Of a stretch of DNA of 64,000 bases, positions 10,997-43,737 are shown piece after piece. The stretch comes from Caldisericota bacterium (lineage in GTDB: Bacteria; Caldisericota; Caldisericia; JAAYUI01): positions 64,001 to 128,000 of the forward strand of contig JAKPMO010000004.1 of assembly GCA_029548865.1 (NCBI GenBank). The letters run 5' to 3'. A program made the position numbers and the translations under genes. Every line of letters starts with the position of its first letter. Position 1 is the stretch's first letter. The notes under the pieces are model-generated. The model did not search any database, was not told the origin of the DNA, and saw only the letters and a program-made list of their open reading frames with translations.

Positions 10997-11610
10997 TTTA
11001 TATGGAAATATTGCCTGAGTTTTTCGATTGTTTTTGGACCAACACCCTTTACCTCCCCCAACTGGTCGAAGTTTGAAATCCTACCCTTTGTTTTGATGAA
11101 TTTTATTATCTCGTTTGCAGTTTCTGCTTTAAGGTATGGGACTTTGTCGAGTTTGTCAAAAGTGGCGGTGTTTATGTCATCTGGGCCTGACCCATCCCTG
11201 TACTTAGTGTTGCTGGTTGGTTTTGCCTGAATCGAAACCATGCCACTTTTTTTGGGTGCTGGTATGGATGAAACTTGGGTAGCCTGTTTTGTTTTTTCCA
11301 GGAACTCAAATCTTTGTGTGAGGGATGATTCGATCTTGTTTTGAGCATCAGCCATAGAGCCGATTTGCAACTGTGCATCTGTTACTGCTATAACTCTTTC
11401 CATTACTGGCCAACCAATTTTGGCCGATGCGGATTTTGCCAGCTCCAGATTGTCTTCATGGCGCACGGTGTCCATTTGTGGAAGCATTATCCCGGCGATA
11501 ATGCCCACAGAGCAGCCTGCCAGAAAACAAGAAAGGCCCCATAAAAGGGCCTTTCTTGTTTCTATTGCTTCCTTCTTTTTGGTTGCAGTGACAGGATGGT
11601 TTTCTGTCAT
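10993..11610 (-). CDS. comEA: ComEA-like membrane-anchored HhH DNA receptor
   Basis: One N-terminal TM segment; C-terminal DINTA...VKGVGPKTIEKL; overlaps the comEC start (ATGA). Confidence 0.8.
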   Translation of the reverse strand: MTENHPVTATKKKEAIETRKALLWGLSCFLAGCSVGIIAGIMLPQMDTVRHEDNLELAKSASAKIGWPVMERVIAVTDAQLQIGSMADAQNKIESSLTQRFEFLEKTKQATQVSSIPAPKKSGMVSIQAKPTSNTKYRDGSGPDDINTATFDKLDKVPYLKAETANEIIKFIKTKGRISNFDQLGEVKGVGPKTIEKLRQYFHIK

Positions 11611-26389: not shown

Positions 26390-26839
26390 ATGACAATGAA
26401 AAACCAGAATAAGGTAGTTGCATACATCACAAGAGGTACAAAACTTCTCGTTTTTGATCATGCCAATTTTCCAGAAGTTGGGACACAAGTGCCGGCAGGG
26501 ACGATTGAAGATGGTGAAACACCGACTTTTGCAGTGATGAGGGAAGTCTTTGAGGAAACTGGTCTGAACAAGCTCTACCTTAGGGATTTTCTTGGTATGC
26601 AAACACTGGTGTTGGAAAAGCCTGAAGGAAAGATGTTAATCAACAGGCATTATTATCATTTTGAAGTCCCGGATGATGTTCCGGATACATGGGCCCATTA
26701 TGAAACAAAGCCAAGTGATGGCTCATTCGACCTGATCCTTTTCAATTTCAGGTGGGTTGATTTTTCAAAAGACAATATAACCTTGGCAGGCAAGCAGGAT
26801 TTTTTCTTGCGTCTTTTAGGCAATAAATTAAAAAAGTAA
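26390..26839 (+). CDS. NUDIX hydrolase
   Basis: Nudix box GTIEDGETPTFAVMREVFEETGL. Confidence 0.92.
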   Translation: MTMKNQNKVVAYITRGTKLLVFDHANFPEVGTQVPAGTIEDGETPTFAVMREVFEETGLNKLYLRDFLGMQTLVLEKPEGKMLINRHYYHFEVPDDVPDTWAHYETKPSDGSFDLILFNFRWVDFSKDNITLAGKQDFFLRLLGNKLKK

Positions 26840-26904
26840 AACAATAAAATATTGTATTAATGATTAATTTGTTACTCTTCTCCAGGTCAGCTTAGCGTTC
26901 TTAA

Positions 26905-26934
26905 TTGACAAACTGTTTGGGCCTTGCTTATAAT
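26905..26934 (+). promoter_or_regulatory. Promoter of tRNA-Asp
   Basis: TTGACA-N18-TATAAT. Confidence 0.75.
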
Positions 26935-26949
26935 ACGTGGACGTTTCGC

Positions 26950-27025
26950 GGGGTCGTGGTGTAGCGGTCAACACGCCAGCCTGTCACGCTGGAGACCGGG
27001 GGTTCGAATCCCCTCGATCCCGCCA
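26950..27025 (+). tRNA. tRNA-Asp(GTC)
   Basis: Acceptor GGGGTCG/CGATCCC, anticodon arm CCAGC-CTGTCAC-GCTGG, discriminator G, CCA. Confidence 0.97.
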
Positions 27026-27099: not shown

Positions 27100-27127
27100 T
27101 TGACTGGATTGCATTTCAACCTATAAT
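27100..27127 (+). promoter_or_regulatory. Promoter of the protease cluster
   Basis: TTGACT-N16-TATAAT, then SD GGAGG and ATG 27155. Confidence 0.7.
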
Positions 27128-27154: not shown

Positions 27155-30100
27155 ATGAGACGCCATCTCAGTCTTGTTCTTGTAGCGACCATTATTTTGA
27201 TGGTACAACCTGCTTATGCAGCTGAAAACAAACCTGATATTTCTCTTGACATGCTGGTAGTTCTGGATGGCAATACCGTTGCGGATTTCTTGCCACAAAA
27301 TTATGTCCAGACAGACTCAATCTCCCTGGATTCATCGCTTGCCTTTGCTGGACGCGAAACAATGAAATCGGTTGAATCTTTTATATCTTCAAATTGCCAG
27401 GGCATTGTCGAACAAGTTTATCAAAAATACAGCATTCTTACAAAAGGTTTTGCTTGCAAGATAAAAACACGAAATATTAAAAGACTGGCCAGTATTCCTG
27501 GGATCAAGAGCGTTGAAAAGATTCCGGATTACAAGCTCGATCTTGATACTTCAACAACCGTCATAGGTGCCAATGACGCTTGGAAGATGCTTGATCAAAA
27601 TCGCCAACCGCTGAATGGAACAGGAGTCATCATTGGTGTTATAGATACTGGCCTTGACTGGCGCCATCCCGACCTTGGTTCAAGAATGGGTTCGAAGGAA
27701 AAAGTTGTTGATGGCTATGATTTTGCCGATGGCGCTGATATATCCAATGATACAGAACAGCATGGTACTCATGTTGCTGGCATCTGTGCAGCAAATGGGA
27801 AAGTCAAAGGCGTTGCTCCTGGAGCAAATCTCGCAGGATATAAAGTTTTCACCAGTGAAAAGGGTAGATCAGTCAATGTTGGTGCAAACATCAATGCTGC
27901 ACTTGAGAAAGCAATCACATCGAAGTGCGGGGTAGTCAATCTTTCGCTAGGTTCTCCAGGGGGGAGCACTGGTGGCGAAGAAGGAAATTCAATCTATCAC
28001 AAGGTTGTAAAGGCCGGCATTGTTGTTGTCGCATCTGCAGGCAACAATGGTTCACGCTGCCTTACCCAGCCTTATGTTGTAGGAACGCCAAGCACTTACA
28101 TGCCAGTTATTTCTGTAGCCGCATCTGACGATATGAAGCACCCAGAGATTTCCGTAACAAACCCACCAGGTGAAAATATGCGCATTCTGGGAAGGGAGTT
28201 TGACCTTCCCCCAAAATGGCCAGATAGTGAATGGGAGGTTGTTGATTGCGGATACGGTTATCCTAGCGATTTTGAGGGTATTGACGTCAAAGGCAAAATT
28301 GCTTTGATACAAAGAGGCCCGATAACCGACAAGAATGCCTATTTTAGGGACAAAGACCTCAATGCTGCAAAAGCAGGTGCTGCAGGTTGCATAATTTACA
28401 ATCATAGCCCTGGTTCTTTTGCAGGAACCATGAAAATAGATGATGCAGACCTGGAAAAGAAGTTCATACCTGCACTTGCGATCACAAATGTTCAGGGTCT
28501 TAAACTCCAGTCATTAATAGCAAAGGGTCTTAAAGTGAAAGTTTCTTCAGGGAATCCCTTTGGCCAGATAGCTGATTTCTCTTCCTCAGGGCCCTCCGCC
28601 GATTATTATTTCAAGCCAGAGGTGACGGCACCTGGTGTTGGCATAAGAAGCACTGTAACTACCAAACCAAACAGCGCTGACCCAAAAAAGAGGGACCCTC
28701 AGTGGGCAGTAATGCAGGGAACATCAATGTCTGGTCCTCATGTTGCTGGGGCTTCCGCAATACTGAGGCAGGCATATCCAAAGGCCGAACCAAAACAAAT
28801 CAAGGCCATATTTATGGCGACCTGCGACCTGCTTCGCAATGATGAAGCCGGGGAATACGTTCCCCTGATGTCGCAGGGATCCGGAAGAATCAATATTCCT
28901 GCTGCACTTGGTGCCAAGATGATATTTGATCCACCTGCCCTTTCCTTGAGGGCAATCTCCGGGAAAGTAAAACAGGCATCTTTTAAGGTGACAAATATTT
29001 CCAAAAAGCAAACCGAGTTTGCTTTGAGTTATCATTCGCTTGGAGATACCACAAAGTGCAATTTTGACAGGGAAACAGAGAAGCTAAAACCTGGTGAGAC
29101 AAAAACGATAACAGCATCTTTTGTTTGCGATGACGATTCAAAAGGTTTTCTTGAAGGTGTGATTTTCGCCAATATGGGTCAAGAAAATGTTCATCTCCCG
29201 CTAATAATCCTCAATGGTTCTCCAGATGTCCCGCCACAAGTTTCTGACTTAAGGGTCAGCAAATCAATTATGACACATGGTGAGGGCAGTGAGGCTGGGA
29301 CAACAATCAGCTTCAGGTTCAATTATGGCACCTTCATGTCTGGCGGTCCGGGGCAGGATGTTTCATCAAATTATGGTGCAGCAAAAATAGTTCTCTACGA
29401 TAACGAAGAAAATCCTACTGGAAACATATTTTTTGATGATACCCTGGAGATAGGCTATCACAATATCATATGGAAAGGGCCGGACAATCTTGGAAGGCTG
29501 TTTGTAAAAGATGGCGATTATGTTGTAAATGCATTTGGTCTCTCGGCCAATGCCAGTGGTACGATAGTAGAACAGTCGCCCCGTCAAATGAAGCCAATTT
29601 CGATTGTTGGCGCACCTCTAAAGGAAAAACCTCTGATATTTATTAAGTGTGTTCCAGAGAAACCACGCCCTGAAGAACCTTTCCTTCTTCTTATAAAAAC
29701 GAGTTTTATCCCAAGCTTGTCTTCCATAAAACTGGACATTGATACTGATCCCGCATTTTATCAGGTGAGCTCTATAAAAGCACTGGATGTTTATGGCAAC
29801 TCCAAAGAAAATGTTTTGTTTGAAAACGCCGTTGACAATGAGAAGGGCAAGGTGGGTATAAAGTATCTTTCCACCAATGGTTCTTCCGTGGATTTTAAGG
29901 GCACCATTTTTGCTATTGAGTGCATCTCACATCAGGAAGGCATCTCGAGTGTTTCCATAAAAGAATGTACCGCAACCTCTTCTTTTGGCCAAATTGCTCC
30001 AATACCTCTCAAAGCAGTTTTTGAGATAAAAAAGGGCTACAGTTTTTATGATCTAAATATGGATGGTGTTGTTGATGAGCTTGATGGTGACATACTCATG

Positions 30101-30229
30101 TACCGTCTTGGAACATCTGAAGGGGAAGAAAACTATACTGAATCGATGGATTTTGATGGAGATGGACAAATAACCGTAATTGACTTTATAATATTGGCAA
30201 AACACTACGGGCAAACAATGTACCCATAG
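27155..30229 (+). CDS. Secreted S8 (Vpr-like) serine protease 1: propeptide, PA domain, Ig/FlgD-like domains, divergent cohesin, dockerin
   Basis: VIDTG, HGTHVAG, SAGN, GTSMSGP; PA domain VKGKIALIQRG; C-terminal DLNMDGVVDELD...DFDGDGQITVID. Confidence 0.92.
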   Translation: MRRHLSLVLVATIILMVQPAYAAENKPDISLDMLVVLDGNTVADFLPQNYVQTDSISLDSSLAFAGRETMKSVESFISSNCQGIVEQVYQKYSILTKGFACKIKTRNIKRLASIPGIKSVEKIPDYKLDLDTSTTVIGANDAWKMLDQNRQPLNGTGVIIGVIDTGLDWRHPDLGSRMGSKEKVVDGYDFADGADISNDTEQHGTHVAGICAANGKVKGVAPGANLAGYKVFTSEKGRSVNVGANINAALEKAITSKCGVVNLSLGSPGGSTGGEEGNSIYHKVVKAGIVVVASAGNNGSRCLTQPYVVGTPSTYMPVISVAASDDMKHPEISVTNPPGENMRILGREFDLPPKWPDSEWEVVDCGYGYPSDFEGIDVKGKIALIQRGPITDKNAYFRDKDLNAAKAGAAGCIIYNHSPGSFAGTMKIDDADLEKKFIPALAITNVQGLKLQSLIAKGLKVKVSSGNPFGQIADFSSSGPSADYYFKPEVTAPGVGIRSTVTTKPNSADPKKRDPQWAVMQGTSMSGPHVAGASAILRQAYPKAEPKQIKAIFMATCDLLRNDEAGEYVPLMSQGSGRINIPAALGAKMIFDPPALSLRAISGKVKQASFKVTNISKKQTEFALSYHSLGDTTKCNFDRETEKLKPGETKTITASFVCDDDSKGFLEGVIFANMGQENVHLPLIILNGSPDVPPQVSDLRVSKSIMTHGEGSEAGTTISFRFNYGTFMSGGPGQDVSSNYGAAKIVLYDNEENPTGNIFFDDTLEIGYHNIIWKGPDNLGRLFVKDGDYVVNAFGLSANASGTIVEQSPRQMKPISIVGAPLKEKPLIFIKCVPEKPRPEEPFLLLIKTSFIPSLSSIKLDIDTDPAFYQVSSIKALDVYGNSKENVLFENAVDNEKGKVGIKYLSTNGSSVDFKGTIFAIECISHQEGISSVSIKECTATSSFGQIAPIPLKAVFEIKKGYSFYDLNMDGVVDELDGDILMYRLGTSEGEENYTESMDFDGDGQITVIDFIILAKHYGQTMYP

Positions 30230-30290
30230 ACTAGCATAAGCATTTCATTTTGGTATAATTCTTACGCGATACTAGATTTAAGGAGCTTCA

Positions 30291-33200
30291 ATGAGAAGAT
30301 ACCTGGTTTGGGCTTTGATTTTTGTTCTCTCGGCAGGTCTTTTTCCGGCCAGCCGGGTCTTGTCGGCTTCTGATATCTATCTGGTTACCATTAATGGTGA
30401 ATCGGCTTGCAGAATGGAAAGTATGGGTTTTTCGCCGATCCATTCGATGCTCGTGTCAAAAACTTTGCTTGCCAGTGCGAAGGATGCTATCAGAAAAAAT
30501 TGCCACTCGGCTTCATTCAGGTTTGATTTTGATTACCTTTTAAATGGAATGTCTGTTGAGCTTGACAAGCGGGATGCTGAAGTGGTAAAAAGCTTGTCAT
30601 TTGTTAAGTCGATTACAAGAATTAATAGTCTAGCACCAGCAGCAGTCAGGACTGTTGCTGAAACAGTTGGGGCCTCGCCGCTTTATGAAGTTAAGGATCA
30701 AAATGGCAATTTTGTTAATGGCAAAGACATTCTTGTCGGTGTGATCGATTCTGGAATAGATTATAGACACCAGGACCTTGGAAATGGAATGTATGGACCT
30801 GGTGCAAAGGTGGTGGGTGGATCCAATTTTGTGGAACCAAAGGCACCTCCGCTTGATGATGAAGTAATGGGTCATGGAACCTCAGTAGCAGGCATTATCG
30901 CTGCAGACAACACAAAAGCGCCGGGTATTGCTCAAGGTGCAAAATTGATGTCTTATAAGGTTTTCTCAAACAAGAATCCCGATGTAATGGAAGATGTTGT
31001 TATCGCGGCGATTCAGGCAGCTGTAAAAGATGGATGCAAAGTAATCAATGTCTCTCTTGCAAGACCAGGTGGCAGTTCTTCTGAACTTTCAGCCTCTGCT
31101 CTTGCAGCAGAACAGGCTACAAGGGCTGGTATTTCAGTTGTTGGCTCAGCCGGTGATTTTGGAGTTTATTGTGATGGCATTGAAGGTGGAACGGTTGGTG
31201 GGCCATCCCTAGCCCTTGATTCGATATGCGTTGGTTCTTCAGACACCAGGCCAGCTTGCAGGGTAAAAATTGAAGGCTCAAACAGAAGCATTTTTGGAAT
31301 GATGTCTGTGCCACCCCTTTCATTTGCTGGACCACAATCCATAGAGCTTGTTGATGGTGGATATGGATCCGAAGAGGAATTTTCAAAAACTAATGTTCTT
31401 GGCAAGTATGTTCTTATAAAAAGAGGGCCAGAGATTGGCGAAGCAATCCCATTCTTCCAGAAACTGCTCAATGCAAAAAAGAGGGGTGCTGTTGGTGCAA
31501 TTATCTGGAACCATAGTCTTGGAGAAGTTTTCCAGATGTTTGTTGGTTTCAATTCAATAACTGGAGAACCAATAAGAAATGAAGAAATTGTCCCATCATG
31601 TTTTATAGGGAATTCTGATGGACTCTTCCTCCAAAAGCTTGTCTCAGGCCAGGAAGTCAAGACCTCTATCACAGAAGAAATTGCCGATACAGTGGCAAGA
31701 ATGACGGCTATTGGTCCAACATCGGACCTAACATTCAAACCGGATGTTTGCGCCCCTGGAATTGGAGTGCCTGCTCCTCTCTCCACAAGTTCGACTGATG
31801 GAAACACCTCAAAATATACACAGAATTTCTCTGGTACTTCCGCAAGTGCCGGTATTGTATCTGGAGCCGTTGCCTTGATAAAACAGGCCAATCCAGGTTG
31901 GACACCATCTGATATAAGACTTGCCCTCATGAACACATCAAAACTTCTTATCAATCCAATAACTGGTGAATATTCCAGTCTTTTGTTGCAGGGTGCTGGA
32001 CAGATAAATGCCAAAATGGCAACATCCGCCCCATGCGTTATTTCACCAGGCGGGTTGATAGTCACAAAAGACAAATCAAAGGACGTAAAGCTTACATTTA
32101 AGGGCCTTGGTACTGATGCAAATTTCAAAGTGAGATTTGAAGTTCTGAATAAGCTTGATGATTATGTCAAGTTTACTGGTCAGGAGACTGTAAGTGTGCC
32201 TTCAAAAAATGAAGCAACATACACTTTCTCAATTGATTATTCTGCGACTGAAATCCCATGGAATGTAGAGTGCGTTATCTGGTTTGAAAGCGACAAGATA
32301 AAGTTGCATGTTCCGGTCATTTGCTGGAAAGGCTATGCCACAAGTGAGAAAAGGAATATTACCTCACTCAAAGTTACAGGAAACAACATCAATTATGATG
32401 GGAAGGGCGACAAGGTAACCATCGAATTTGGTGTTGCGATGGGCGATAAATTTACATACAAGCCTCTTTTTTACAAAATGCAGAGCGATGAGGAAGCTCC
32501 GCAGCCAAGAGAAACGATGATTTCTGGTGTCCAGTTTGATCTTATTGATGGTAATGGTGATACATGGGTGACAATAAAACGCTTTGAGAACACCCAGTAT
32601 GGTTACTACAAATTTGACTGGTTTGGTGAAGATGCCGAGGGCATGCATTCAATACCTGATGGTTCTTATGGTCTCAAGATTGTTATTAGCGAAACAGTTC
32701 TGGAGCCAGGAAGCGCCAAATTGAAAACCAAGAATTCATCTCAGATTGCAAAAGACACTATAAGAATAAATGGAAGCAAAGTGCAAAGTCCACCAAGGTT
32801 CTTTATGGTTGCACAACCACATACGCCCTCTGCCAACCAGAAAGTTCTTGTGGATTGTTATGTGACATTTGCAAAAGATATTTCATCGCTTAATTTCAAT
32901 GTAGCCTACAATCCGGATGAGGTTAAAATACTCCAGGTTTGGCCTGGGAGATTCCTCCAATCAGACGGCTCGCCGGTAGAATCCGATGTTTATCTCGATG
33001 ATGTCAATGGTAAAATCAAAGTTATTTCCAAGAGAGCAAATCAAACTGGCATTAGCGGACATGGTATCATTCTGAAGTTCTTGGCCATCTTCCCCAATCC
33101 GTCTGCGCCAACCATTAAATTTGATGATCTTAGTCCATATGATCCAAGAGGAAGGATGATCCCACACATGGGTTTCCCACTGGAACTTGAAGTTACCGAT

Positions 33201-33392
33201 GTCGAACCACTACTTGGCGACCTCAATTTCGATGGAATTGTAGATATGGAAGACTACTTTATTTTCGCGCAATCGTATGGTGCAAAGAGGGATGAATTAC
33301 ACTACAACCCTCTTGCTGATTTCAACTCGGATGGTATTATTGACTTCGAAGATTTGAAAGTATTGCTTAATAATCTTGGCAAAAGTGAGTGA
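30291..33392 (+). CDS. Secreted S8 serine protease 2 (atypical active site) with cohesin and dockerin
   Basis: VIDSG, HGTSVAG, SAGD, GTSASAG; cohesin LNFNVAYNPDEV...GRFL...ISGHGIILKF; GDLNFDGIVDMED...DFNSDGIIDFED. Confidence 0.9.
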   Translation: MRRYLVWALIFVLSAGLFPASRVLSASDIYLVTINGESACRMESMGFSPIHSMLVSKTLLASAKDAIRKNCHSASFRFDFDYLLNGMSVELDKRDAEVVKSLSFVKSITRINSLAPAAVRTVAETVGASPLYEVKDQNGNFVNGKDILVGVIDSGIDYRHQDLGNGMYGPGAKVVGGSNFVEPKAPPLDDEVMGHGTSVAGIIAADNTKAPGIAQGAKLMSYKVFSNKNPDVMEDVVIAAIQAAVKDGCKVINVSLARPGGSSSELSASALAAEQATRAGISVVGSAGDFGVYCDGIEGGTVGGPSLALDSICVGSSDTRPACRVKIEGSNRSIFGMMSVPPLSFAGPQSIELVDGGYGSEEEFSKTNVLGKYVLIKRGPEIGEAIPFFQKLLNAKKRGAVGAIIWNHSLGEVFQMFVGFNSITGEPIRNEEIVPSCFIGNSDGLFLQKLVSGQEVKTSITEEIADTVARMTAIGPTSDLTFKPDVCAPGIGVPAPLSTSSTDGNTSKYTQNFSGTSASAGIVSGAVALIKQANPGWTPSDIRLALMNTSKLLINPITGEYSSLLLQGAGQINAKMATSAPCVISPGGLIVTKDKSKDVKLTFKGLGTDANFKVRFEVLNKLDDYVKFTGQETVSVPSKNEATYTFSIDYSATEIPWNVECVIWFESDKIKLHVPVICWKGYATSEKRNITSLKVTGNNINYDGKGDKVTIEFGVAMGDKFTYKPLFYKMQSDEEAPQPRETMISGVQFDLIDGNGDTWVTIKRFENTQYGYYKFDWFGEDAEGMHSIPDGSYGLKIVISETVLEPGSAKLKTKNSSQIAKDTIRINGSKVQSPPRFFMVAQPHTPSANQKVLVDCYVTFAKDISSLNFNVAYNPDEVKILQVWPGRFLQSDGSPVESDVYLDDVNGKIKVISKRANQTGISGHGIILKFLAIFPNPSAPTIKFDDLSPYDPRGRMIPHMGFPLELEVTDVEPLLGDLNFDGIVDMEDYFIFAQSYGAKRDELHYNPLADFNSDGIIDFEDLKVLLNNLGKSE

Positions 33393-33408
33393 AGAAAGGG
33401 CAGTCTAA

Positions 33409-36400
33409 ATGAAAAAAGCGCTTGCATTGATTGTCGCAGTTGCCGTGCTGGCAGGTTTGCCAGTCATCATGGCTCGAAACACCGTCGCTTCCGATGTGAA
33501 AATTACAGTGGAGCAGGTTTATGGTGTAATGCCTGATTCTTACATCGGCTCATTCAACCTTTCAGGCCCGAATACAGTGGAGTCTGACTATATGGTTGGC
33601 TACTATTATCCGATGTGTGCGATGAAGGTAACAAGTGATGGCAATTTGATAGTTGCCGATACCGCCTATGGAAGAGTCCATGTGCTTGGCTCGGATCTCT
33701 CCCACAAGAGTGTTTTTGGATCCCTTGGTTTTGGCGATGGCAAGTTTCAATATCCAGTTGATTGTGCCGAAGATGGGGATGGCAACCTTTATTTTGTAGA
33801 CATGTATAATTGCCAGGTTTCAAAATGGGACAAATATGGCAAATTTATTGGCGCTTTTGGCTCTGAAGGCCAGGAGAATGGGCAGTTTATTGCACCAGGT
33901 GGAATAGCAGTTGATAGTGATGGAAATATTTATGTTTCCGATGGCAACACAGCCAGAATACAAAAGTTTGATTCTTCCTTCAAATTTAAAAACTTAATGA
34001 ATGTTGGAAGTGAGACCGTTGCTCTTGATTCTCCTGGACCGATCAGAATTGGACCAAATGATGAAGTTTTTGTTGCAGAAATGAAAAGTGGGACCATTTA
34101 TCAATTCAAACCATCCGGTGATTTTGTAAAGGCAGTTGTCAAATCAACCGACGAAAAAAATCCCATTTTTAAAAAGCTGGGTGCTTTCGAAGTTGGTTCA
34201 GACGGGACATTCTATCTCCTTGATCGTGCAGATGGTTCAAACGCAATAAAGATTTTTGACAAGGATGGGAAAGAAAAGTCAAGGTTCCAGAGCGTTGCTT
34301 CCAATGAGGAGTATCTTGATGGCATGGCAGTTGGAGCAGACAGTGTTTATGTCCATGTTTATGGTTCAATCAATCCAGGGTCTGGCGTCTCGATTGACAA
34401 CCCGTTTATTGTGCCAAGCTCACAAAGACTCATCAAATTTGACAAATCAGGTTCCAAAAAGGGTGAGGAATCATACAACCCGATGCAAGAGGGCAGGGGT
34501 GGAAACATCACATCATGCGCTGTGACTTCAGATGGGACACTCTATGCCGTTTCAAACATCAATGTTGATCAGGGTGGTAAATACGCTAGTAATATCCTTG
34601 TTTGGGACGCAAAAGGAAACTATCAGAACTCGATTTCAACTGATGATCTTAATCTTTCAAATCAAGCTCTCTTCTCTGACGTAACAGTTGATTCATATGA
34701 TAATGTTTATGTTTCTGTCAATGAAGGTTTTAGGGGCGAGGTTCCAGGTTACATCATAAAGATTGCAACTGGCTCCGAAATGCTTTCAACGGTAACCCCA
34801 AATTCAAGGACCGCTATTTCTTACTCATCCGAGCAAATCGGAAAAGGTGATCTTGGAACTCCAGCAGGTCTGTGTGTTGATCGTATGGACAACCTTTATG
34901 TTGCCGACAGGGCAAGACAGTCAGTGATCATATTTACAAGCAAGGGGAGAAAAAGGGATGAACTTGGTGTCAATACTTCACCCAGCAATGTTTCGGTTGA
35001 CCCATTCCGCAATATGGCCTGTGCAACCGATGGACAGATAGTTGTCATTGACAAAAAAGGCAGAGACATCGCCAGTATGGGTGGTCAGGGAAGAAAACCA
35101 GGACAACTCTATTATCCCCATGGAGTTCTTTTCGCAAATAATGGAGCAGTAATTGTTTCTGATGGCGAAAATGGAAGAATCCAGATTTTTGAACGCAAAG
35201 AGGGTTCTGATTTCACGGCCACATATACTTCTCCTCGTATGTTCTATGTTCCGCAGGGAATGTGCTGGGGCAAGGACCAGAAGGTTTATCTCACAGATAA
35301 CTTCCATAATGTAATTTACAGGCTCAACATCAATGGTTACACACCACCAGGAATTGGCGAAACTGGTCCAGAACCGCCGCTCCCACCACAACCACCGGCC
35401 CCACAAAATATCCCATCAGATGGTGAGATTTACTTCCAGCCATCAGATGTGAAAATTCCATCGGGTGGATCATCAGACATCAATATCAGCATCAGGTATG
35501 CGTCAAATGTCTATGGTGTTGGTATGACACTCAAATATGACCCGCAATATCTCCAGCTTGACAAGTGCGAACAGGGGAATTTCCTTTCCTCTGACGGAAA
35601 CAAAAACCTCTTTATCTACAAAGATGAGCCAAAGGGTACAGTAAAAATTGGTGGCCCGACAAGAACATCAGCGGTTGCTGGAATGAATGGTGAAGGCATA
35701 CTTATAAAGTTCCGTTTCGTTGGTGTCAAGGAGGGCGACACAAAGCTCGAAGTATCAGAGGTATTAGTTAAAGATCCAGATCTTAACAATATTCAAGTTT
35801 CAGTCACAAATGCCAAAGTTAAAGTGTTGCCAAAAGACAGCACGCCACCACCAGTAAATGTCAATATTCCAAAATGTTCTTGGGATGCTTCATTTACCGG
35901 TTCCGGAACCACTGAAAAAGATGCAAAACTTGTACTCAAGACTGTTGATGGAAGCCAGGACATAAAAGTTGGTGCAGATGGAAGCTTCAAGTTTACAGTG
36001 AATTTGAAAAAAGGTGCCAACAACTTCACAATTACAGCAACTGATCCAGCGGGTAATTCAAAAGACTATACCTTTACAATCAATCAGGCAACAAAAAATG
36101 TTGTTGTCATGTGGGTTGGAAAGCTCGTTTACATGGTTAATGGTTCCAATATGAACCTTAATGCTGCTCCGCAGCTTATCGGTGGTTCAACATATGTTCC
36201 AATGCGTGACCTTGGAAATGCTCTCAGCTGTGTTGTTGATTGGGACGCTAAAGAAAAGAAAGCAACATATACATACACAGATCCATGCTCTGGTACACAA
36301 ACAGTCCTTGAAGCCTGGATTGACAAAACCATGGGAAGACTCAATGGTTCGCCACTAGATTTTGGTAAGGCACCAAAGATAATTGGTGGAAGAACGCTCG

Positions 36401-36492
36401 TGCCGTTACGTGCTATCTCGTCTGGACTTGGTGCTGATGTAAAGTATGAGGCTTCAAACAAGCAGATAACAATCACTCATCCGAAGCCCTGA
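33409..36492 (+). CDS. Secreted NHL double-propeller protein with Pro-rich linker, cohesin, Ig-like domain and C-terminal stalk domain
   Basis: NHL repeats; PEPPLPPQPPAP linker; cohesin VYGVGMTLKYDPQYL...GNFL...MNGEGILIKFRF; TYVPMRDL and TLVPLRAI stalk repeats. Confidence 0.85.
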   Translation: MKKALALIVAVAVLAGLPVIMARNTVASDVKITVEQVYGVMPDSYIGSFNLSGPNTVESDYMVGYYYPMCAMKVTSDGNLIVADTAYGRVHVLGSDLSHKSVFGSLGFGDGKFQYPVDCAEDGDGNLYFVDMYNCQVSKWDKYGKFIGAFGSEGQENGQFIAPGGIAVDSDGNIYVSDGNTARIQKFDSSFKFKNLMNVGSETVALDSPGPIRIGPNDEVFVAEMKSGTIYQFKPSGDFVKAVVKSTDEKNPIFKKLGAFEVGSDGTFYLLDRADGSNAIKIFDKDGKEKSRFQSVASNEEYLDGMAVGADSVYVHVYGSINPGSGVSIDNPFIVPSSQRLIKFDKSGSKKGEESYNPMQEGRGGNITSCAVTSDGTLYAVSNINVDQGGKYASNILVWDAKGNYQNSISTDDLNLSNQALFSDVTVDSYDNVYVSVNEGFRGEVPGYIIKIATGSEMLSTVTPNSRTAISYSSEQIGKGDLGTPAGLCVDRMDNLYVADRARQSVIIFTSKGRKRDELGVNTSPSNVSVDPFRNMACATDGQIVVIDKKGRDIASMGGQGRKPGQLYYPHGVLFANNGAVIVSDGENGRIQIFERKEGSDFTATYTSPRMFYVPQGMCWGKDQKVYLTDNFHNVIYRLNINGYTPPGIGETGPEPPLPPQPPAPQNIPSDGEIYFQPSDVKIPSGGSSDINISIRYASNVYGVGMTLKYDPQYLQLDKCEQGNFLSSDGNKNLFIYKDEPKGTVKIGGPTRTSAVAGMNGEGILIKFRFVGVKEGDTKLEVSEVLVKDPDLNNIQVSVTNAKVKVLPKDSTPPPVNVNIPKCSWDASFTGSGTTEKDAKLVLKTVDGSQDIKVGADGSFKFTVNLKKGANNFTITATDPAGNSKDYTFTINQATKNVVVMWVGKLVYMVNGSNMNLNAAPQLIGGSTYVPMRDLGNALSCVVDWDAKEKKATYTYTDPCSGTQTVLEAWIDKTMGRLNGSPLDFGKAPKIIGGRTLVPLRAISSGLGADVKYEASNKQITITHPKP

Positions 36493-36502
36493 TAAACTTT
36501 TG

Positions 36503-36532
36503 AAAGGGAGGCCTTTTGGCCTCCCTTTTTTT
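36503..36532 (+). terminator. Intrinsic terminator-like hairpin inside the protease cluster
   Basis: AAAGGGAGGCC-tttt-GGCCTCCC followed by T7. Confidence 0.85.
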
Positions 36533-36549
36533 GTAGACATGGAGGGGAT

Positions 36550-39500
36550 ATGAAAATACTCAAAAACATTGTTGTAGGTCTTATCATTTTTTCCATGTTT
36601 CTTTTTTGTGGTCCCTCTTTTGCGGCCCAGGATTATGGGTATGCAAAAATAGATAAAGCTCTAATTGGAAAAACAGGCACCGTTAATGTCATAATAATCA
36701 CTGGTGACAAAACTGTTGTCGATTATGTTGGTAATCTTTCTTACTCCAACAAATTTTTCCAGGGAACAATTGAGTCTTGTATAAACAATTCCGTCGAGAG
36801 CGTTTATCTGCGGTGCAAGTCCATTTCACCTGATCTCACAAAAAGATGGGTTTTTAATACGGTGATTAATGGTTTTTCTTGTGAAGTCGATGCAAGTAAA
36901 TTGATTGATCTTGCCAAACTGCCTTCGGTGAAAAAAATTGTTGATGCAACATTCAGATATGAAATGCAAATCAACAAGCACCTTCCATATCTTGGTGTAA
37001 CAAAACTGAGGCAGATAGGAACACCTGATGGTAAAAAAGCGACAGGCGCTGGCATAAGAGTCGGTGTTATTGACAGTGGAATAAACTATAAGCACCTTGC
37101 TCTTGGTGATGGCTGGGGCAAAAGGGTCAAATTTGGGTATGATTTTGCCGATAAAGATTCTGACCCGCTTGATTTTATGGGGCATGGTTCACACTGTGCT
37201 GGAATAATTGGTGCCAATGGCAAGTATCTTGATACTCCAATAACTGGTGTCGCACCGGAAGCTACTTTTGGTGCATACAAAGTTTTTACTGTCGACGAGG
37301 GTGGAGCAAGACCGGACAATGTGGCCGCGGCGCTTGAGATGGCTGCAAAAGATAAGTGTGCTGTTGCCAATATGTCGCTTGGAAGAGCGTTATATTATGG
37401 TGGTGAGAATGAAGTTGAAGATCAGGCAATAAAAAACGCCACAAAAGCCGGAATGCTTGTTGTAGTTGCAGCAGGTAATGACGGTTATCGCTCGGATAGG
37501 TTGCCATTGCCAATAGGTGTTCCAGCAGTAACAGAGGAGGCACTTTGTGTTGCGGCAACTGATGAGCGTGGCAAATGTCTCATAGAGGTAATGACAAAAA
37601 CTGGTGAAACAAAGAGGATGTTGGCAAACAATCATATATGGGGCCTTCCATCCATAAACCCGGATGATTCCCTTTACGAGGTTGTTGATGGTGGCACTGA
37701 TCCCAACAAAATTCCTGATTGTGCTGGCAAGGTTTTATTGATTCAATATAAAGACAATATCAGAAGCTGGCACAGATTGGAAACTCAAAATTTCATTCGA
37801 AAACTAAAAACACTCAAATGCAAAGCTTTTATTTTCTGGTCCGATGGTTTTGATGGAACACCATTTACCCTCTCCTATTTTGAAAGCTTTGAAGATGCAA
37901 TGACTTTTCAGGTGCCCATCTATACCTTGAACAGAAGGGATGCAAAGATACTTCTGGATGCGGTAAAAGAAGGGCAGAAAATACATTTCAAGAGAATATC
38001 ATACCCTGGAGATTTTTCCTCGACTGGTCCGTACCTTGGACCAAGGGGTCTGAAATTCAAACCAGAAGTTTCTGCGCCTGGAATGTGGATTTTTTCAACG
38101 GTTTATGATGAGAAGAATCCGAAGGATGCTTGGGACTCATATTCTGGAACATCAATGGCGGCACCATTCGTAACTGGCATGTCAGCACTTGTAAAGAGTT
38201 ATCACCCTGATTGGCTACCATGGCAAATAAAAGCCTCACTTATGAATACAGCCAAGTTCCAGATCAATCCACTCAATGGTGACCCCTATCCATTGGTAAT
38301 CCAGGGGTCAGGGCTTGCCAATGTTTATGATGCTTGTACAACGCCAGTAATAACGGACCCTCCAGCATTTACCTTCCATGGTGGTAACTACAAGGATGGA
38401 GTAAAGATAAATCTTATCAATGTTGATTCGAAGAGGGCTACAGTAAAACTCACTTCCAAAGTGACCTTTGTCGGGGATGTTGAAGGTGTTGATATATCAA
38501 TTACTCAATCAGATGAAGTGGTCTCTCCACCGCCACAATCCTCACCAAGGGATGCAACTGCTTCGCTTGATCTCAAAATAAATCTGGACAAGCAAAAAGT
38601 TCCAAAAAATAGAGTTGTTGAGGGCTCAATTGAAATCACCATCGATAGTTCAACCCAGATCCATGTTCCGTTCATGGCTTTGTTTGGCGAGATAGAGATT
38701 TACAACTCTCTTAAATCGTTTTCAAATCTTCTCGTGCAGAATGACAAGATTGATGTTGCCCAGGGTGAAAAACCTGGAACAGTCAAGTTTCATGTTGGAG
38801 TTGGCTCAAAATCGTTCTTCTGGGGCAACCAATATGACAATTTTGCCTATATGACAAGGATATCTGTTCTAGATAAGATCTTGGATAGGTGGAGAGATAT
38901 TTATGAAGGCAATTATCTCATTCCAGGTGATTATGAATTCGAATGGGACGGAAAAGATATTGATGGAGATTTGTTCTTGCCAAATGGGCCAAATGGCATA
39001 GGAAGTTTTATGTACTATGAAGCCATAGTTGGTAGTACGCAAAATAAACTTGTTGAGAGTTCAGTGCCAAGGGATGCTCAAGCTTGGGTGGAGGTGATTG
39101 GTTCAGACAAATTACCGCTTCCTGAGCTGAATCTTAGTGTTAACCCAGAGTTTGGTGCATTGAATAAAACACTCACAGTGAAGATGTCTCTTGCAAGGTC
39201 GAGCCAAAATAAGGTCATAAGGTTCTCTCTGCTCTATGATGCAAAAATGGTAACTTACACTGGCAATTATAGAAGAGGTTCTATGACTGAAGATTCAACA
39301 AGTATGATGATTTCAATCGAGGATAACCAGGACGGTAAAATGACCGTGGAGATCTCGCCATCTTATGCTGGTTTAACATTGGATGGAACAGGCGATCTCA
39401 TGGAGATTGATTTTACTTGCAATAGGGTTGGTGGAACGGAGTTCGATACTTCTTTTGTAGAAATACTTGACAATGAAATTAAAAATATTAGATTCGTAAG

Positions 39501-39735
39501 ACCGTTGCCAGTTGAGGTGCTTATAACCGATCGGTATCTTTTGATCGGTGATTTCAACGTAGACTGGGTGGTAGATGACAAAGATCTTGTTATTTTCGGT
39601 CAGCAGTTTGGTAAGAAAGAGGGAGATCCCGACTACAACAAGCTGTGCGACATTAACAGGGACAAGGTCATCGACGAAAAGGATTTTATCTACTTCTCTA
39701 AACATTTTGGAGAAAGAAGTGAAAAACCAAAATAA
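36550..39735 (+). CDS. Secreted S8 serine protease 3 with cohesin and dockerin
   Basis: VIDSG, HGSHCAG, AAGN, GTSMAAP; FlgD-like FEWDGKDIDG; cohesin IRFSLLYDAKMV...LDGTGDLMEIDF; GDFNVDWVVDDKD...DINRDKVIDEKD. Confidence 0.92.
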   Translation: MKILKNIVVGLIIFSMFLFCGPSFAAQDYGYAKIDKALIGKTGTVNVIIITGDKTVVDYVGNLSYSNKFFQGTIESCINNSVESVYLRCKSISPDLTKRWVFNTVINGFSCEVDASKLIDLAKLPSVKKIVDATFRYEMQINKHLPYLGVTKLRQIGTPDGKKATGAGIRVGVIDSGINYKHLALGDGWGKRVKFGYDFADKDSDPLDFMGHGSHCAGIIGANGKYLDTPITGVAPEATFGAYKVFTVDEGGARPDNVAAALEMAAKDKCAVANMSLGRALYYGGENEVEDQAIKNATKAGMLVVVAAGNDGYRSDRLPLPIGVPAVTEEALCVAATDERGKCLIEVMTKTGETKRMLANNHIWGLPSINPDDSLYEVVDGGTDPNKIPDCAGKVLLIQYKDNIRSWHRLETQNFIRKLKTLKCKAFIFWSDGFDGTPFTLSYFESFEDAMTFQVPIYTLNRRDAKILLDAVKEGQKIHFKRISYPGDFSSTGPYLGPRGLKFKPEVSAPGMWIFSTVYDEKNPKDAWDSYSGTSMAAPFVTGMSALVKSYHPDWLPWQIKASLMNTAKFQINPLNGDPYPLVIQGSGLANVYDACTTPVITDPPAFTFHGGNYKDGVKINLINVDSKRATVKLTSKVTFVGDVEGVDISITQSDEVVSPPPQSSPRDATASLDLKINLDKQKVPKNRVVEGSIEITIDSSTQIHVPFMALFGEIEIYNSLKSFSNLLVQNDKIDVAQGEKPGTVKFHVGVGSKSFFWGNQYDNFAYMTRISVLDKILDRWRDIYEGNYLIPGDYEFEWDGKDIDGDLFLPNGPNGIGSFMYYEAIVGSTQNKLVESSVPRDAQAWVEVIGSDKLPLPELNLSVNPEFGALNKTLTVKMSLARSSQNKVIRFSLLYDAKMVTYTGNYRRGSMTEDSTSMMISIEDNQDGKMTVEISPSYAGLTLDGTGDLMEIDFTCNRVGGTEFDTSFVEILDNEIKNIRFVRPLPVEVLITDRYLLIGDFNVDWVVDDKDLVIFGQQFGKKEGDPDYNKLCDINRDKVIDEKDFIYFSKHFGERSEKPK

Positions 39736-40669
39736 TAGGATTATTGCTACAGAAGATGGTCAGAAAAAAAGGGCGGGTAAGAAAACGCCCTTTTTTTCTG
39801 GTCCTATCTGGCATGAAATCGTAAGGTATTCAGAACTTGTTATAGGGGCTGTGATATTTGGCTTTGGTCAGGTAACTTTTCTTGTTCCAGCACAATTGGC
39901 TCCAGGTGGGTTGAATGGTTTTGGCATTATCATCAATAGTGCCACCGGTTTTCCCGTAGGTCTTGCGTATTTTCTCATGAACATCCCGGGGTTTCTATGG
40001 GCGTTCAAACTTCTTGGGCCAAGGTACCTCTTAAGGACCGGCGTTGCCATTGCTGTTTCATCAGCTACCATGGATTTATGTGCCATGTTTATAGTCCCAA
40101 AACTCAATATCTTTCCAAATGGGCCGGACTATGTTTTGGCATCCATATTTGGAGGAGTTCTCCTTGGGATAGGTGTCGGCCTGATTTTCAGAAGCGGAGG
40201 AAGTGCCGGAGGAACCGAGGTCATTTCCCAGCTTTTATACTGGTCGACTGGCTATGAATATGGAAAAGCTGTCCTAGTTCTTGATTCGGTTATTATAGCT
40301 ATTGTGACATTGTATTTTAGAAATATTCAACTGGCCCTTTATTCAATCATCACCCTTTTTATCTATTCAATGGTTTTGAATATGGTTGCGTCTGGGATGA
40401 CGTCAACAAAACTTGTGATAATCATCACCAACGAGTGCGATAAGATAAGAAATGTAATTATGGAGAAACTTGGAAGAGGCGTTACGATATTGGATGCTGA
40501 AGGCGGCTATCGCTTTGATCCCAAGAAAATGGTTATTTGTGCAGTTCCTCAATCTCAGGTAAGCAGGATAAAAGAGTTTGTTAGGGAGGTTGATCAGGAA
40601 TCTTTTATGATGGTGTCTGACCTTTCAGAAGTTGTTGGAAAAGGTTTTGAGAGAAAATTACCCAAGTAA
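39719..40669 (+). CDS. YitT family membrane protein
   Basis: LAPGGLNG, MNIP, FGGVLLGIGVG, GGSAGGTE, LGRGVT, EVVGKGF; start probably GTG 39719. Confidence 0.9.
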   Translation: MKNQNNRIIATEDGQKKRAGKKTPFFSGPIWHEIVRYSELVIGAVIFGFGQVTFLVPAQLAPGGLNGFGIIINSATGFPVGLAYFLMNIPGFLWAFKLLGPRYLLRTGVAIAVSSATMDLCAMFIVPKLNIFPNGPDYVLASIFGGVLLGIGVGLIFRSGGSAGGTEVISQLLYWSTGYEYGKAVLVLDSVIIAIVTLYFRNIQLALYSIITLFIYSMVLNMVASGMTSTKLVIIITNECDKIRNVIMEKLGRGVTILDAEGGYRFDPKKMVICAVPQSQVSRIKEFVREVDQESFMMVSDLSEVVGKGFERKLPK

Positions 40670-43726: not shown

Positions 43727-43737
43727 TCTGCCCTCCC

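Follow-up and report, generated by a model that had tools for sequence, protein, structure and literature searches.

How might an uncultured bacterium's relative of the cellulosome be built if its enzymes were proteases? We address this question with a gene cluster of an uncultured Caldisericia bacterium (GCA_029548865.1, contig JAKPMO010000004.1), in which three genes for S8 proteases with a cohesin and a dockerin accompany a gene for an NHL-propeller protein with a cohesin. The cluster occupies positions 27155-39735 of the window, the whole stretch of 64,000 nt that was analyzed. An initial annotation had proposed that the proteases could chain head to tail on the NHL-propeller protein to form a protein-degrading surface complex.

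The cluster and its protein modules

According to the ORF list, the gene order is S8a, S8b, the NHL-propeller protein (the NHL anchor in what follows) and S8c (Table 1). The four co-oriented, secreted proteins of about 1000 aa described in the initial annotation are borne out by strand and length, with secretion judged by eye from the signal peptides. Its treatment of the cluster as one set holds as far as this shared orientation goes, but the anchor gene comes third and a terminator-like hairpin parts it from S8c. Besides the promoter-like site before S8a, a better one at 26905-26934 lies upstream of tRNA-Asp (26950-27025), which it likely serves. The neighbors of the cluster are housekeeping genes and giant surface-protein genes.

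RNA-library contigs from four studies span genes of the cluster at identities of at least 99%, and the flanks (26500-26966 and 40043-40500) have zero RNA depth in runs X6, X7 and X10. The contigs of three runs end at 36486-36492; they restart at positions of at least 36586 in X6 and X7, and in X9 no piece follows before 38665 among the pieces listed. This break agrees with termination at the hairpin between the anchor gene and S8c, which we regard as a weak hint. Contigs of X6 and X7 also stop, at 39750 and 39770, by the hairpin 3' of S8c.

Table 1. Positions of cluster features in the window (residue numbers refer to the respective protein)
Feature	Position	Strand	Details
Promoter-like site TTGACT-16-TATAAT	27100..27127	+	11/12; 27 nt upstream of S8a start, then GGAGG ribosome-binding site
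S8a (P0001)	27155..30229	+	ORF, 1024 aa
S8a cohesin, residues 827-958	29633..30028	+	Pfam 25.0 bits; AF2 and VIA-align
S8a dockerin, residues 959-1024	30029..30226	+	Pfam 28.8 bits; Ca loops D152-D163 and D185-D196 (tail numbering)
S8b (P0002)	30291..33392	+	ORF, 1033 aa
S8b cohesin, residues 836-968	32796-33194	+	Pfam 18.9 (below cut-off); genome-specific cohesin HMM
S8b dockerin, residues 969-1033	33195-33389	+	Pfam 18.4 on protein, 23.1 in six-frame genome search
NHL anchor (P0003)	33409..36492	+	ORF, 1027 aa
NHL anchor cohesin, residues 673-806	35425-35826	+	Pfam 24.7 bits; genome-specific HMM
NHL anchor Ig-like domain, residues ~828-893	within 33409..36492	+	Pfam
NHL anchor C-terminal Cu_amine_oxidN1, residues ~883-1027	36055-36489	+	Pfam E 8.1e-24
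Terminator-like hairpin and U run, anchor gene/S8c gap	36502..36535	+	12 bp, -22.8 kcal/mol, z -5.6
S8c (P0004)	36550..39735	+	ORF, 1061 aa
S8c cohesin, residues 859-990	39124-39519	+	no Pfam cohesin; genome-specific HMM, hhalign
S8c dockerin, residues 991-1061	39520-39732	+	Pfam 19.9 on protein, 25.1 in six-frame genome search
Terminator-like hairpin and U run, 3' of S8c	39764..39797	+	-15.8 kcal/mol, z -3.7

S8a consists of a signal peptide, an I9-like propeptide, an S8 domain with a PA insert, an Fn3/Ig-like middle region, the cohesin and the dockerin. Pfam detects S8 in all three proteases at E-values of 5e-48 to 6e-55 (5.9e-55 in S8a), with PA in S8a and S8b and without it in S8c. The catalytic triad of the subtilases is intact in each: D164/H203/S524 with oxyanion N297 in S8a, D153/H195/S517 with the oxyanion Asn replaced by Asp in S8b, and D175/H212/S535 with the Asn kept in S8c. 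The best solved match to S8a is Bacillus Vpr (8jmw_A, E 1.7e-69, residues 129-701). The NHL anchor has a signal peptide, two NHL propeller regions (Pfam E 3.2e-25) and a Pro-rich linker (~641-672) ahead of its cohesin; its terminal domain, which the initial annotation took for a stalk in place of a dockerin, is Cu_amine_oxidN1.

The cohesins of S8a and the NHL anchor exceed the Pfam cut-off (24.1 bits, PF00963), and a genome-specific cohesin HMM recovers all four cohesins of the cluster, including those of S8b and S8c. The S8c tail aligns with the S8a-type cohesin-dockerin profile over 203 columns (hhalign 99.4%, E 1.7e-21). AF2 models of the S8a tail (pLDDT 85.5) and the S8b tail (pLDDT 90.2) have the same strand pattern, and the modeled S8a cohesin is a complete nine-strand jelly-roll that superimposes on solved type I, type II and non-cellulosomal cohesins (VIA Z 16-17, rmsd 1.9-2.4 A, 130-138 residues). 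The NHL cohesin profile likewise finds solved cohesins (E 1.5e-11). On the dockerin side (cut-off 22.9 bits), both Ca loops occur in S8a, S8b and S8c and two helices in both tail models, the duplicated 12-residue loop/helix arrangement that marks type I dockerins (PF00404). The Ca-ligand columns are invariant across 29 tails from six families; position 6 of the S8c loops is W and K, where G is usual. All three domain families named in the initial annotation are therefore present, S8b and S8c having required methods beyond Pfam. Its own reservation, that the modules might be generic Ig folds or EF-hands, can be set aside, because the cohesin model matches true cohesins at the above Z-scores and the tail profile finds solved dockerins at E 2e-17 versus about 1e-5 for calmodulins.

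Cohesin and dockerin proteins in the genome and the class

A census of the 1.8-Mb genome with genome-specific HMMs for both modules identified 11 proteins with one cohesin each, together with 12 clear dockerin proteins. All six cohesin proteins without a dockerin carry Cu_amine_oxidN1, which is found in none of the five with one (0/5) and in none of the dockerin proteins (0/12). The NHL anchor and five more proteins thus share the makeup of OlpC/ScaG-type anchors (signal peptide, one cohesin, PF07833, no dockerin), and one of these, Anc19, adjoins a PQQ-cohesin-dockerin gene as a second anchor-client pair. Eight dockerin clients are peptidases (four S8, three M6-like, one C25), three are BD-FAE esterases and one is a PQQ propeller. 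The absence of glycoside hydrolases noted for the cluster extends to all 12 dockerin proteins in Pfam scans, and such scans of the cohesin proteins gave no CBM above thresholds, the only row being a sub-cut-off CBM32 on S8a (E 0.054). A cellulosome in the strict sense, with a multi-cohesin scaffoldin plus CBM and dockerin-bearing glycoside hydrolases, is not what these genes encode. The numbers of sockets (11; 12 if the C25 tail is included) and plugs (12 and a weak one) approach parity only if the enzyme-borne cohesins are counted.

Cu_amine_oxidN1 is the main surface module of this genome: it occurs in 86 proteins, 73 of which have it at the extreme C-terminus, and together the 86 make up 12.9% of coding capacity. 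Omp85 was not found in the genome, and SLH is confined to two ORFs. Four of the seven S8 genes end in cohesin-dockerin, one ends in Cu_amine_oxidN1 and one has SLH; the dockerin therefore occupies the place of the direct anchor of the paralogs.

Across the class, where the cohesin-dockerin tails are retained throughout, an S8-cohesin-dockerin gene is followed by an NHL-cohesin-Cu_amine_oxidN1 gene in 25 of 29 loci, from families f1, f3, f4, f5 and f6. Family f2 has no adjacent anchor gene (3/3 loci), and its genomes have cohesin ORFs of ~1,090 aa at other sites. Most f4 genomes have one Dockerin_1 match, on S8, and in the five checked, no cohesin above the cut-off occurs outside the S8 and NHL genes. 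The dockerin set widens to M6-like, C25 and esterase proteins in f1, f5 and f6. Among the loci read, S8c is restricted to the window's own genus, with orthologs at L002 and L003.

Conservation within the genus differs among the modules. The cohesin and the catalytic domain are 92% and 87% conserved in S8b and 89% and 93% in S8c, and both dockerins reach 95%. In S8a, no part of the protein is less conserved than the cohesin (65% in the genus, 15.5% between families), and the dockerin stands at 72%, versus 96% for the NHL cohesin, which makes S8a a poor candidate partner for the NHL anchor here; by this measure the S8b and S8c dockerins would fit it better. Partial correlation of pairwise distances across 23 genomes gave no excess co-variation of the S8a-type dockerin with the NHL cohesin (partial r 0.00), and values of 0.38 with its own cohesin and 0.27 with the protease middle region.

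Possible modes of assembly

From the domains, the intact triads, the anatomy of the operon, the census and the conserved gene pair, we infer that the proteases dock on the anchor. Our leading model, to which we assign an even chance, is that the S8 dockerins plug into single-cohesin Cu_amine_oxidN1 proteins, predicted to be held on the cell wall, as part of a non-cellulosomal cohesin-dockerin system. Cu_amine_oxidN1 would fix proteins to the envelope, with the NHL-propeller protein of the same operon as one such anchor, and the dockerins would bind anchored cohesins in a Ca-dependent manner. The protease-borne cohesin would then offer a second-tier socket for dockerin enzymes that lack a cohesin (M6-like metalloproteases, esterases) or for another protease, and the NHL propellers may act as a spacer or a substrate-binding part, like a CBM on a scaffoldin. 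The outcome would be a surface assembly of two layers, chiefly proteolytic, that supplies peptides to the cell.

We favor this model because of the S8/NHL synteny in five families, the fact that cohesin proteins carry either Cu_amine_oxidN1 or a dockerin but never both, and the absence of dockerin-bearing glycoside hydrolases, which together lend indirect support to the anchor-and-clients logic of the initial annotation. It is further favored by the conservation of the S8b and S8c cohesins in the genus, which matches that of the catalytic domains, and by the precedent of OlpC/ScaG, with PF07833 and a single cohesin, and of Amy4. It is weakened by the lack of co-variation between dockerin and NHL cohesin, by family f2 and by f4, where one dockerin faces two cohesins and parity of sockets and plugs fails.

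The geometry of the tails also weakens it, and bears on an arrangement that we consider rather unlikely, in which the proteases dock singly and each cohesin is a rigid same-chain support like an X module, with neither chains nor a second tier. In the S8-type tails, only seven residues join the end of the cohesin's final strand to the first of the two Ca loops, and the two-domain models have pTM values of 0.76 (S8a) and 0.82 (S8b); a fixed dyad in cis suits both at least as well as a head-to-tail chain does. The weak conservation of the S8a cohesin, the divergence of the dockerin in step with its own cohesin, the beta-rich, non-cohesin module directly N-terminal to the dockerin of the M6-like proteases and the spread of contiguous cohesin-dockerin units over many architectures are all consistent with such a role. 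Against it, the modeled S8a module is a complete cohesin (Z 17) rather than a reduced X module, and the S8b and S8c cohesins are conserved like catalytic domains. Moreover, discounting the enzyme-borne sockets leaves 12 dockerins to six anchored cohesins, and the Amy4 study shows that trans binding is possible for an enzyme-borne cohesin (PMC4611034).

At the other extreme, each anchor could seed a chain of active S8 proteases joined head to tail, a self-assembling proteolytic coat rooted in the wall. In f1 this would have branched into a counterpart of the cellulosome that degrades protein with several enzymes. We consider this unlikely; in f4 it would require the lone dockerin to accept both the anchor cohesin and that of the protease itself, which are very different from each other. 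An improbable variant dispenses with the anchor, so that the proteases join into oligomers or fibrils, either free or attached only loosely, and the NHL cohesin pairs elsewhere. This would leave the NHL cohesin of f4 without a partner, although it lies beside a protease gene in most loci, and the short junction makes chain geometry uncertain. The variant does accommodate the missing co-variation and the f4 dockerin, the only one found there, which adjoins a cohesin on the same protein. Amy4 auto-aggregates via its own cohesin-dockerin pair (PMC4611034) and Vpr, the nearest solved catalytic relative, makes active extracellular fibrils (PMC10657474), a likeness that concerns the catalytic domain only.

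The function could also differ from feeding. Anchored S8 might mature, shed or turn over Cu_amine_oxidN1 surface proteins, the S8-NHL pair being a housekeeping device, as its retention in small single-dockerin genomes, the setting of the cluster amid housekeeping and giant surface-protein genes, and the ~13% of coding capacity given to surface protein needing maturation or remodeling might suggest. We hold this for improbable too: the dockerin sets of f1, f5 and f6 extend to broad-range degradative enzymes, the genome has three oligopeptide-binding proteins, and the PA-inserted, Vpr-like S8 type is the usual one in extracellular degradative proteases. Finally, that the modules are relics which keep their folds without binding, with the proteases released as free enzymes, is very improbable given the invariant Ca ligands, the class-wide retention of the tails, the conservation of the S8b and S8c tails at least at the level of the catalytic domains and the strict either/or with Cu_amine_oxidN1, even though S8b and S8c score below curated Pfam cut-offs, the S8c loops deviate at position 6 and the cohesins are mutually just 10-28% identical.

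Relation to known systems

The docking model has precedents. OlpC of Clostridium thermocellum and ScaG of Acetivibrio cellulolyticus and C. alkalicellulosi are monovalent cell-surface anchoring proteins, and ScaG is drawn as 'CSBM Coh1', CSBM being a cell surface-binding module (PMC3413522, PMC6780208). Like the NHL anchor, they combine one cohesin with the copper-amine-oxidase-like PF07833 and no dockerin, and both the S8a cohesin model (Z 16.5) and the NHL cohesin profile (E 6.3e-5) match the solved cohesin of OlpC (4dh2). They differ in order, with PF07833 before the cohesin, whereas ~640 residues of NHL propeller precede the cohesin and PF07833 is C-terminal in our anchor. Its presumed partners, furthermore, are proteases, in an organism without dockerin-bearing glycoside hydrolases.

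The proteases resemble ScaO and ScaP, 'unconventional scaffoldins' of A. cellulolyticus, A. mesophilus and C. alkalicellulosi (PMC11557425, PMC6780208, PMC3413522), which by their descriptions share a peptidase (S8-like in ScaO), Fn3 repeats and a cohesin-dockerin unit; the A. mesophilus peptidase scaffoldin has a 'C-terminal Coh1-Doc1 bi-domain unit'. As described, those play a side role in large cellulosome systems and carry extra modules (galactose oxidase, Rhs, PPC), whereas the enzymes here form the core, contain a PA insert and share an operon with their presumed anchor. Our working model follows Amy4 of the Ruminococcus bromii amylosome, an enzyme (GH13) with both plug and socket, whose dockerin binds Sca2, the anchor in the cell wall, as well as the cohesin of Amy4 itself. 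That cohesin also recruits other dockerin enzymes (PMC4611034). There the substrate is starch, the anchor is sortase-linked and binding was measured; here the substrate would be protein and binding is predicted from genes.

For Ca. Stygibacter (Cloacimonadota), an uncultured anaerobe, a cellulosome-like complex with dockerin-bearing S8/S53 and C25 peptidases was predicted and inferred to degrade polypeptides (PMC8542988). It is reported to have a single scaffoldin of 3,755 aa, with CBMs and cohesins in tandem, and to include GH18 and GH57 clients, in contrast to the monovalent cohesins, the lack of GH clients and CBM and the several cohesin-bearing enzymes here. Bacillus Vpr (PDB 8jmw) is an extracellular S8 whose fibrils concentrate activity around cells; the abstract (PMC10657474) and the solved-chain listing mention no cohesin, dockerin or anchor, and the S8a tail lies outside the matched stretch. 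With OlpC/ScaG, ScaO, Amy4 and Ca. Stygibacter in print, the initial annotation overrated the novelty of the parts. Overall, the protease-only system with its paired anchor is a variant of these published designs, a proteolytic take on the plug and socket of the cellulosome that would likely keep proteases at the cell surface.

Architecture and transcription of the protease and predicted anchor genes

The initial annotation described four co-oriented genes for secreted proteins, and all four open reading frames were recovered on the forward strand, in the order protease, protease, NHL protein, protease (see table). S8a carries a Peptidase_S8 domain (Pfam, 5.9e-55) with an inserted PA domain, together with Cohesin (25.0 bits, cut-off 24.1) and Dockerin_1 (28.8, cut-off 22.9) matches, while S8b has the S8 and PA domains with Cohesin (18.9) and Dockerin (18.4) matches that are both below the cut-off. 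S8c has S8 and Dockerin (19.9) matches, and neither cohesin nor PA was detected in it by the Pfam scan. The NHL protein combines NHL repeats (3.2e-25), a cohesin (24.7), Ig-like domains and Cu_amine_oxidN1 (PF07833; 8.1e-24), a predicted wall-anchor domain. N-terminal signal peptides were called by eye on the translations. The catalytic part is nearest to Bacillus Vpr, and Asp, His and Ser are kept in the subtilase motifs of all three proteases. Residue 289 of S8b is Asp instead of the usual oxyanion-hole Asn (motif SAGD), which is kept in S8a and S8c; the same replacement occurs in proprotein convertase 2. In a related genome (G063:C1:17500-23751), the S8a and S8b orthologues share one open frame of 2092 aa, which is either a natural fusion or the result of a lost stop or an assembly error.

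Features of the window, with strand and remarks where available
Feature	Position	Strand	Remark
ORF, 787 aa	608-2971	-	no Pfam family at E 0.001 or better
Cu_amine_oxidN1 protein gene	11607-16832		
5'-nucleotidase-like ORF, 1301 aa	16935-20840	+	two 5'-nucleotidase C-terminal domains, SLH repeats
Sigma-70-type promoter match	26905-26934	+	perfect match; precedes tRNA-Asp
tRNA-Asp	26950-27025	+	directly upstream of S8a
Promoter-like site	27100-27127	+	11/12; followed by GGAGG before S8a
S8a (P0001)	27155-30229	+	1024 aa
S8b (P0002)	30291-33392	+	1033 aa
NHL protein (P0003)	33409-36492	+	1027 aa
S8c (P0004)	36550-39735	+	1061 aa
Cu_amine_oxidN1 protein gene	40958-43741		
Cu_amine_oxidN1 protein gene	43738-47856		
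rpoC	47996-51949	-	
EF-G-like gene	51959-54043	-	full EF-G domain set
rpoB	54056-58255	-	
Cu_amine_oxidN1 protein gene	58360-63999		

The genes are separated by gaps of 61, 16 and 57 nt. The last of these, which separates the NHL gene from S8c, contains a GC-rich hairpin of 12 bp (-22.8 kcal/mol, z -5.6) with a U run behind it, and a second hairpin lies 3' of S8c. Because the first hairpin splits the NHL gene from S8c, we conclude that S8a, S8b and the NHL gene form the core unit and that S8c is a later addition. Among the loci read, S8c occurs only in the window's genus. The perfect sigma-70-type match was rejected as the operon promoter, as the tRNA-Asp gene stands right behind it. RNA contigs from four libraries of four studies match the genes at at least 99% identity and span the S8a/S8b and S8b/NHL junctions, and depth is zero in the flanks (26500-26966 and 40043-40500) in the three library runs X6, X7 and X10. 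It should be noted that such contigs are no proof of transcript ends or levels; the anchor gene's contig depth, raised about twofold, is therefore not read as a ranking of expression. The tRNA-like loose ends of RNA contigs at 26969 and 27025 belong to the tRNA-Asp gene and look like chimeric tRNA assemblies. Elsewhere in the window, the EF-G-like gene lies between rpoB and rpoC, an unusual order for these two genes.

Cohesins and dockerins in the genome and across the class

A cohesin HMM built from the genome's own modules matches all four proteins, S8c being picked up at E 0.003 at the outset and joining the family afterwards. Over 203 columns, the C-terminal 216 residues of S8c can be aligned to a profile made from 29 S8a-type tails (hhalign 99.4%, E 1.7e-21). 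AF2 models of the S8a tail (29-row alignment; pLDDT 85.5, pTM 0.76) and the S8b tail (11 rows; pLDDT 90.2, pTM 0.82) agree in having nine strands and, after them, two helices. The top Foldseek matches of the S8a model are all cohesins, and VIA-align superposes it on type I, type II, C. perfringens and A. fulgidus cohesins with Z 16-17 and an rmsd of about 2 A over 130-138 residues. Against solved structures, the tail profile finds dockerins at E 2e-17 and calmodulins only at about 1e-5, and the NHL-protein cohesin profile finds cohesins at 1.5e-11. Every dockerin has two Ca loops, and the Ca-ligand columns D152, D163, D185, D189 and D196 are invariant over the 29 tails. The domain assignments of the initial annotation thus stand for all four proteins, and from the cohesin-fold match, the far stronger profile match to dockerins than to calmodulins and the Ca-ligand columns, these modules are therefore not generic Ig folds or EF-hands. 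In its dockerin part, the tail profile also matches PDB 8x39_A / 8x3a_A at E 3.4e-7; this solved "serine protease" fragment of 151 aa may, judged by sequence, be a protease-borne dockerin of known structure.

The genome (1.80 Mb, 29 contigs, 93% complete) yields nine dockerins and seven cohesins by Pfam; over all ORFs, its own HMMs give 11 cohesin proteins, 12 clear dockerin proteins and one weak match (C19_163081_165468, E 0.011), extending the repertoire beyond the four proteins of the cluster. One further candidate, C17_65243_69088, was dropped as a spurious repeat match (domain E 4.6). Dockerins are borne by four S8 proteases (the three in the cluster and S8d on contig 19), three M6-like metalloproteases, one C25 peptidase, three BD-FAE type esterases and one PQQ-propeller protein; as the initial annotation had held for the cluster, Pfam finds no glycoside hydrolase, here among all 12 carriers. 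Six cohesin proteins lack a dockerin, and Cu_amine_oxidN1 is present in each of them. They comprise the NHL protein, a PQQ protein, a C25 peptidase, two small anchors of the Coh-Ig-Ig type and one other. In the remaining five the dockerin directly follows the cohesin and Cu_amine_oxidN1 is present in none; no dockerin protein of any kind carries it. The C25 dockerin protein has a cohesin-like stretch N-terminal to its dockerin (hhalign 97.8%); none was found in the M6-like tails. The genome's cohesins are mutually 10-28% identical. On contig 19 (59248-65885, reverse strand), a 498-aa Coh-Ig-Cu_amine_oxidN1 protein is encoded directly upstream of a 1709-aa PQQ-propeller protein ending in Coh-Doc, a second anchor-client pair with a non-enzymatic client.

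Cu_amine_oxidN1 itself has 103 matches in 86 proteins, lying at the extreme C-terminus in 73 of these, and its carriers make up 12.9% of coding capacity. Because there are 86 such proteins, no Omp85 was found in the genome and SLH occurs in only two ORFs (one being the 5'-nucleotidase-like ORF of the window), it appears to serve this organism as its anchor for surface proteins in general. The genome has seven S8 genes, of which four end in Coh-Doc, one ends in Cu_amine_oxidN1 and one carries SLH. Oligopeptide-binding proteins number three.

A word-based homologue search with the S8a tail gave the query cluster only, and relatives were found through genome and HMMER profile searches. Dockerin_1 is present in 80 of the 93 genomes of the phylum, including 79 of the 83 other genomes of families f1-f6 (the four without it are all among the 23 of f4) and none of the nine of f7. 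In a chosen, non-random set of 29 loci around the best S8a matches, the window counted, the NHL gene follows the S8-Coh-Doc gene in 25, either directly, after S8b or, once, after a C25-dockerin gene. Its product has a visible cohesin in 23 of the 25, the other two being cut by the contig or locus end. By Pfam, the NHL orthologues scanned in f3, f4, f5 and f6 all keep NHL and Cu_amine_oxidN1, and an Ig-like domain is kept in f3, f5 and f6 and not in f4; their cohesins were called by our own HMM, with Pfam Cohesin reporting only the f4 one. The loci without an adjacent NHL gene are an f6 paralogue and three from f2; at other sites, the f2 genomes do contain cohesin ORFs of about 1,090 aa. The C25 (gingipain-family) peptidase gene with a dockerin lies in an f3 genome (L031:2141-4438, reverse strand), between the S8-Coh-Doc and NHL genes, which suggests that clients get added to the operon. 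Genomes of f4 mostly have a single dockerin, and in the five checked, over-cut-off cohesins are confined to the S8 and NHL genes. Family f4 thus has the minimal form, with one plug (dockerin) and two sockets (cohesins); the expanded form has about 12 of each, nearly all on peptidases and esterases. A quick tree resolves its deep nodes weakly (support 35), and no weight is put on where it places S8b and S8c with respect to the enzymes of f5 and f6.

Probable docking partners of the tagged proteases

The best reading, and one to which we give an even chance when its second tier is counted in, is that dockerin-tagged proteases are anchored on Cu_amine_oxidN1-borne cohesins and that the enzyme-borne cohesins recruit more dockerins. 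The interpretation given in the initial annotation is thus supported in part; the head-to-tail chains that it proposed would be a further, hypothetical step. Docking on the anchors is favoured by the conserved gene pair, by the second anchor-client pair in the same genome and by the strict either/or between dockerin and Cu_amine_oxidN1. Published precedent favours it too: the cell-surface proteins OlpC (C. thermocellum) and ScaG (A. cellulolyticus) have one type I cohesin and a PF07833 domain (PMC3413522), a module drawn as cell surface-binding for C. alkalicellulosi (PMC6780208). For a working socket on the enzymes, the counts are favourable, as plugs (12-13) and sockets (11-12) balance only if enzyme-borne cohesins are included, and so is the within-genus conservation of the S8b and S8c cohesins (92% and 89%), which matches that of their catalytic domains (87% and 93%).

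Other observations speak against this picture or for a rival to its second tier, in which the cohesin would act in cis, forming a fixed dyad with the dockerin beside it. The last cohesin strand and the first Ca loop are just seven residues apart, and the pTM values of the S8a (0.76) and S8b (0.82) tails point the same way. The S8a tail also drifts fast within the genus (cohesin 65%, dockerin 72%; NHL cohesin 96%). With shared descent removed, the divergence of the S8a-type dockerin tracks that of the cohesin (r 0.38) and the middle region (r 0.27) of the same protease, and does not track that of the NHL cohesin (r 0.00). This distance-correlation ("mirror tree") test has little power, since shared descent makes all matrices correlate at 0.87-0.97; it lends no support to a pairing of this dockerin with the NHL cohesin and is not taken to disprove one. 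The S8b and S8c dockerins are 95% conserved within the genus, and there they are better candidates than that of S8a for the NHL cohesin. That the cohesin beside the dockerin is a shortened X module was rejected, as the S8a model has the full cohesin fold.

Relation to known cohesin-dockerin systems

Non-cellulosomal cohesin-dockerin pairs are common in genomes, and to our knowledge almost none has a known role. Here, a two-gene core is kept across a whole class, with a protease bearing plug and socket beside a wall-type anchor bearing a socket. It raises the questions of whether a dockerin-fused cohesin is a socket in trans or a support in cis, and whether protein degradation is arranged on the cell surface as cellulose degradation is. 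Anchor docking, if true, would explain how abundant digester bacteria with genomes below 2 Mb, in which no outer-membrane marker was found, retain their exoenzymes. It would also give those who design enzyme scaffolds more plug-socket pairs to work with, Ca-dependent and divergent from one another.

Our literature search found no paper naming both "Caldisericota" and "dockerin"; the survey of non-cellulosomal cohesins and dockerins by Peer et al. in 2009 may list similar architectures. The Coh-Doc tail profile has 270 representatives at E 1e-30 or better. In 50 of these the tandem lies in one stretch; S8+PA proteins of about 1,000 aa account for 13, and the others are scaffoldins and proteins with C11, M12B, LRR, PKD, PQQ or solute-binding domains; the Coh-Doc unit is therefore widespread.

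Several published systems share parts of this arrangement. ScaO-type scaffoldins join a peptidase to a Coh-Doc unit, the peptidase being S8-like in A. cellulolyticus and A. mesophilus (PMC3413522, PMC11557425, PMC6780208). Amy4 of R. bromii likewise combines a cohesin and a dockerin; the dockerin binds both the wall anchor Sca2 and Amy4's own cohesin, and this cohesin recruits other enzymes (PMC4611034). In Ca. Stygibacter MAGs, S8 and C25 peptidases carry dockerins and occur together with a scaffoldin that has several cohesins (PMC8542988). Bacillus Vpr, to which the catalytic part is closest, forms active extracellular fibrils (PMC10657474). The Caldisericia system is not a cellulosome, because a scaffoldin with several cohesins, a CBM and GH clients are all absent from it. 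Overall, it is a protease-centred variant built from already described parts. New in it are the phylum, the two-gene core shared across the class, the minimal form with a single dockerin and the anchor with NHL propellers.
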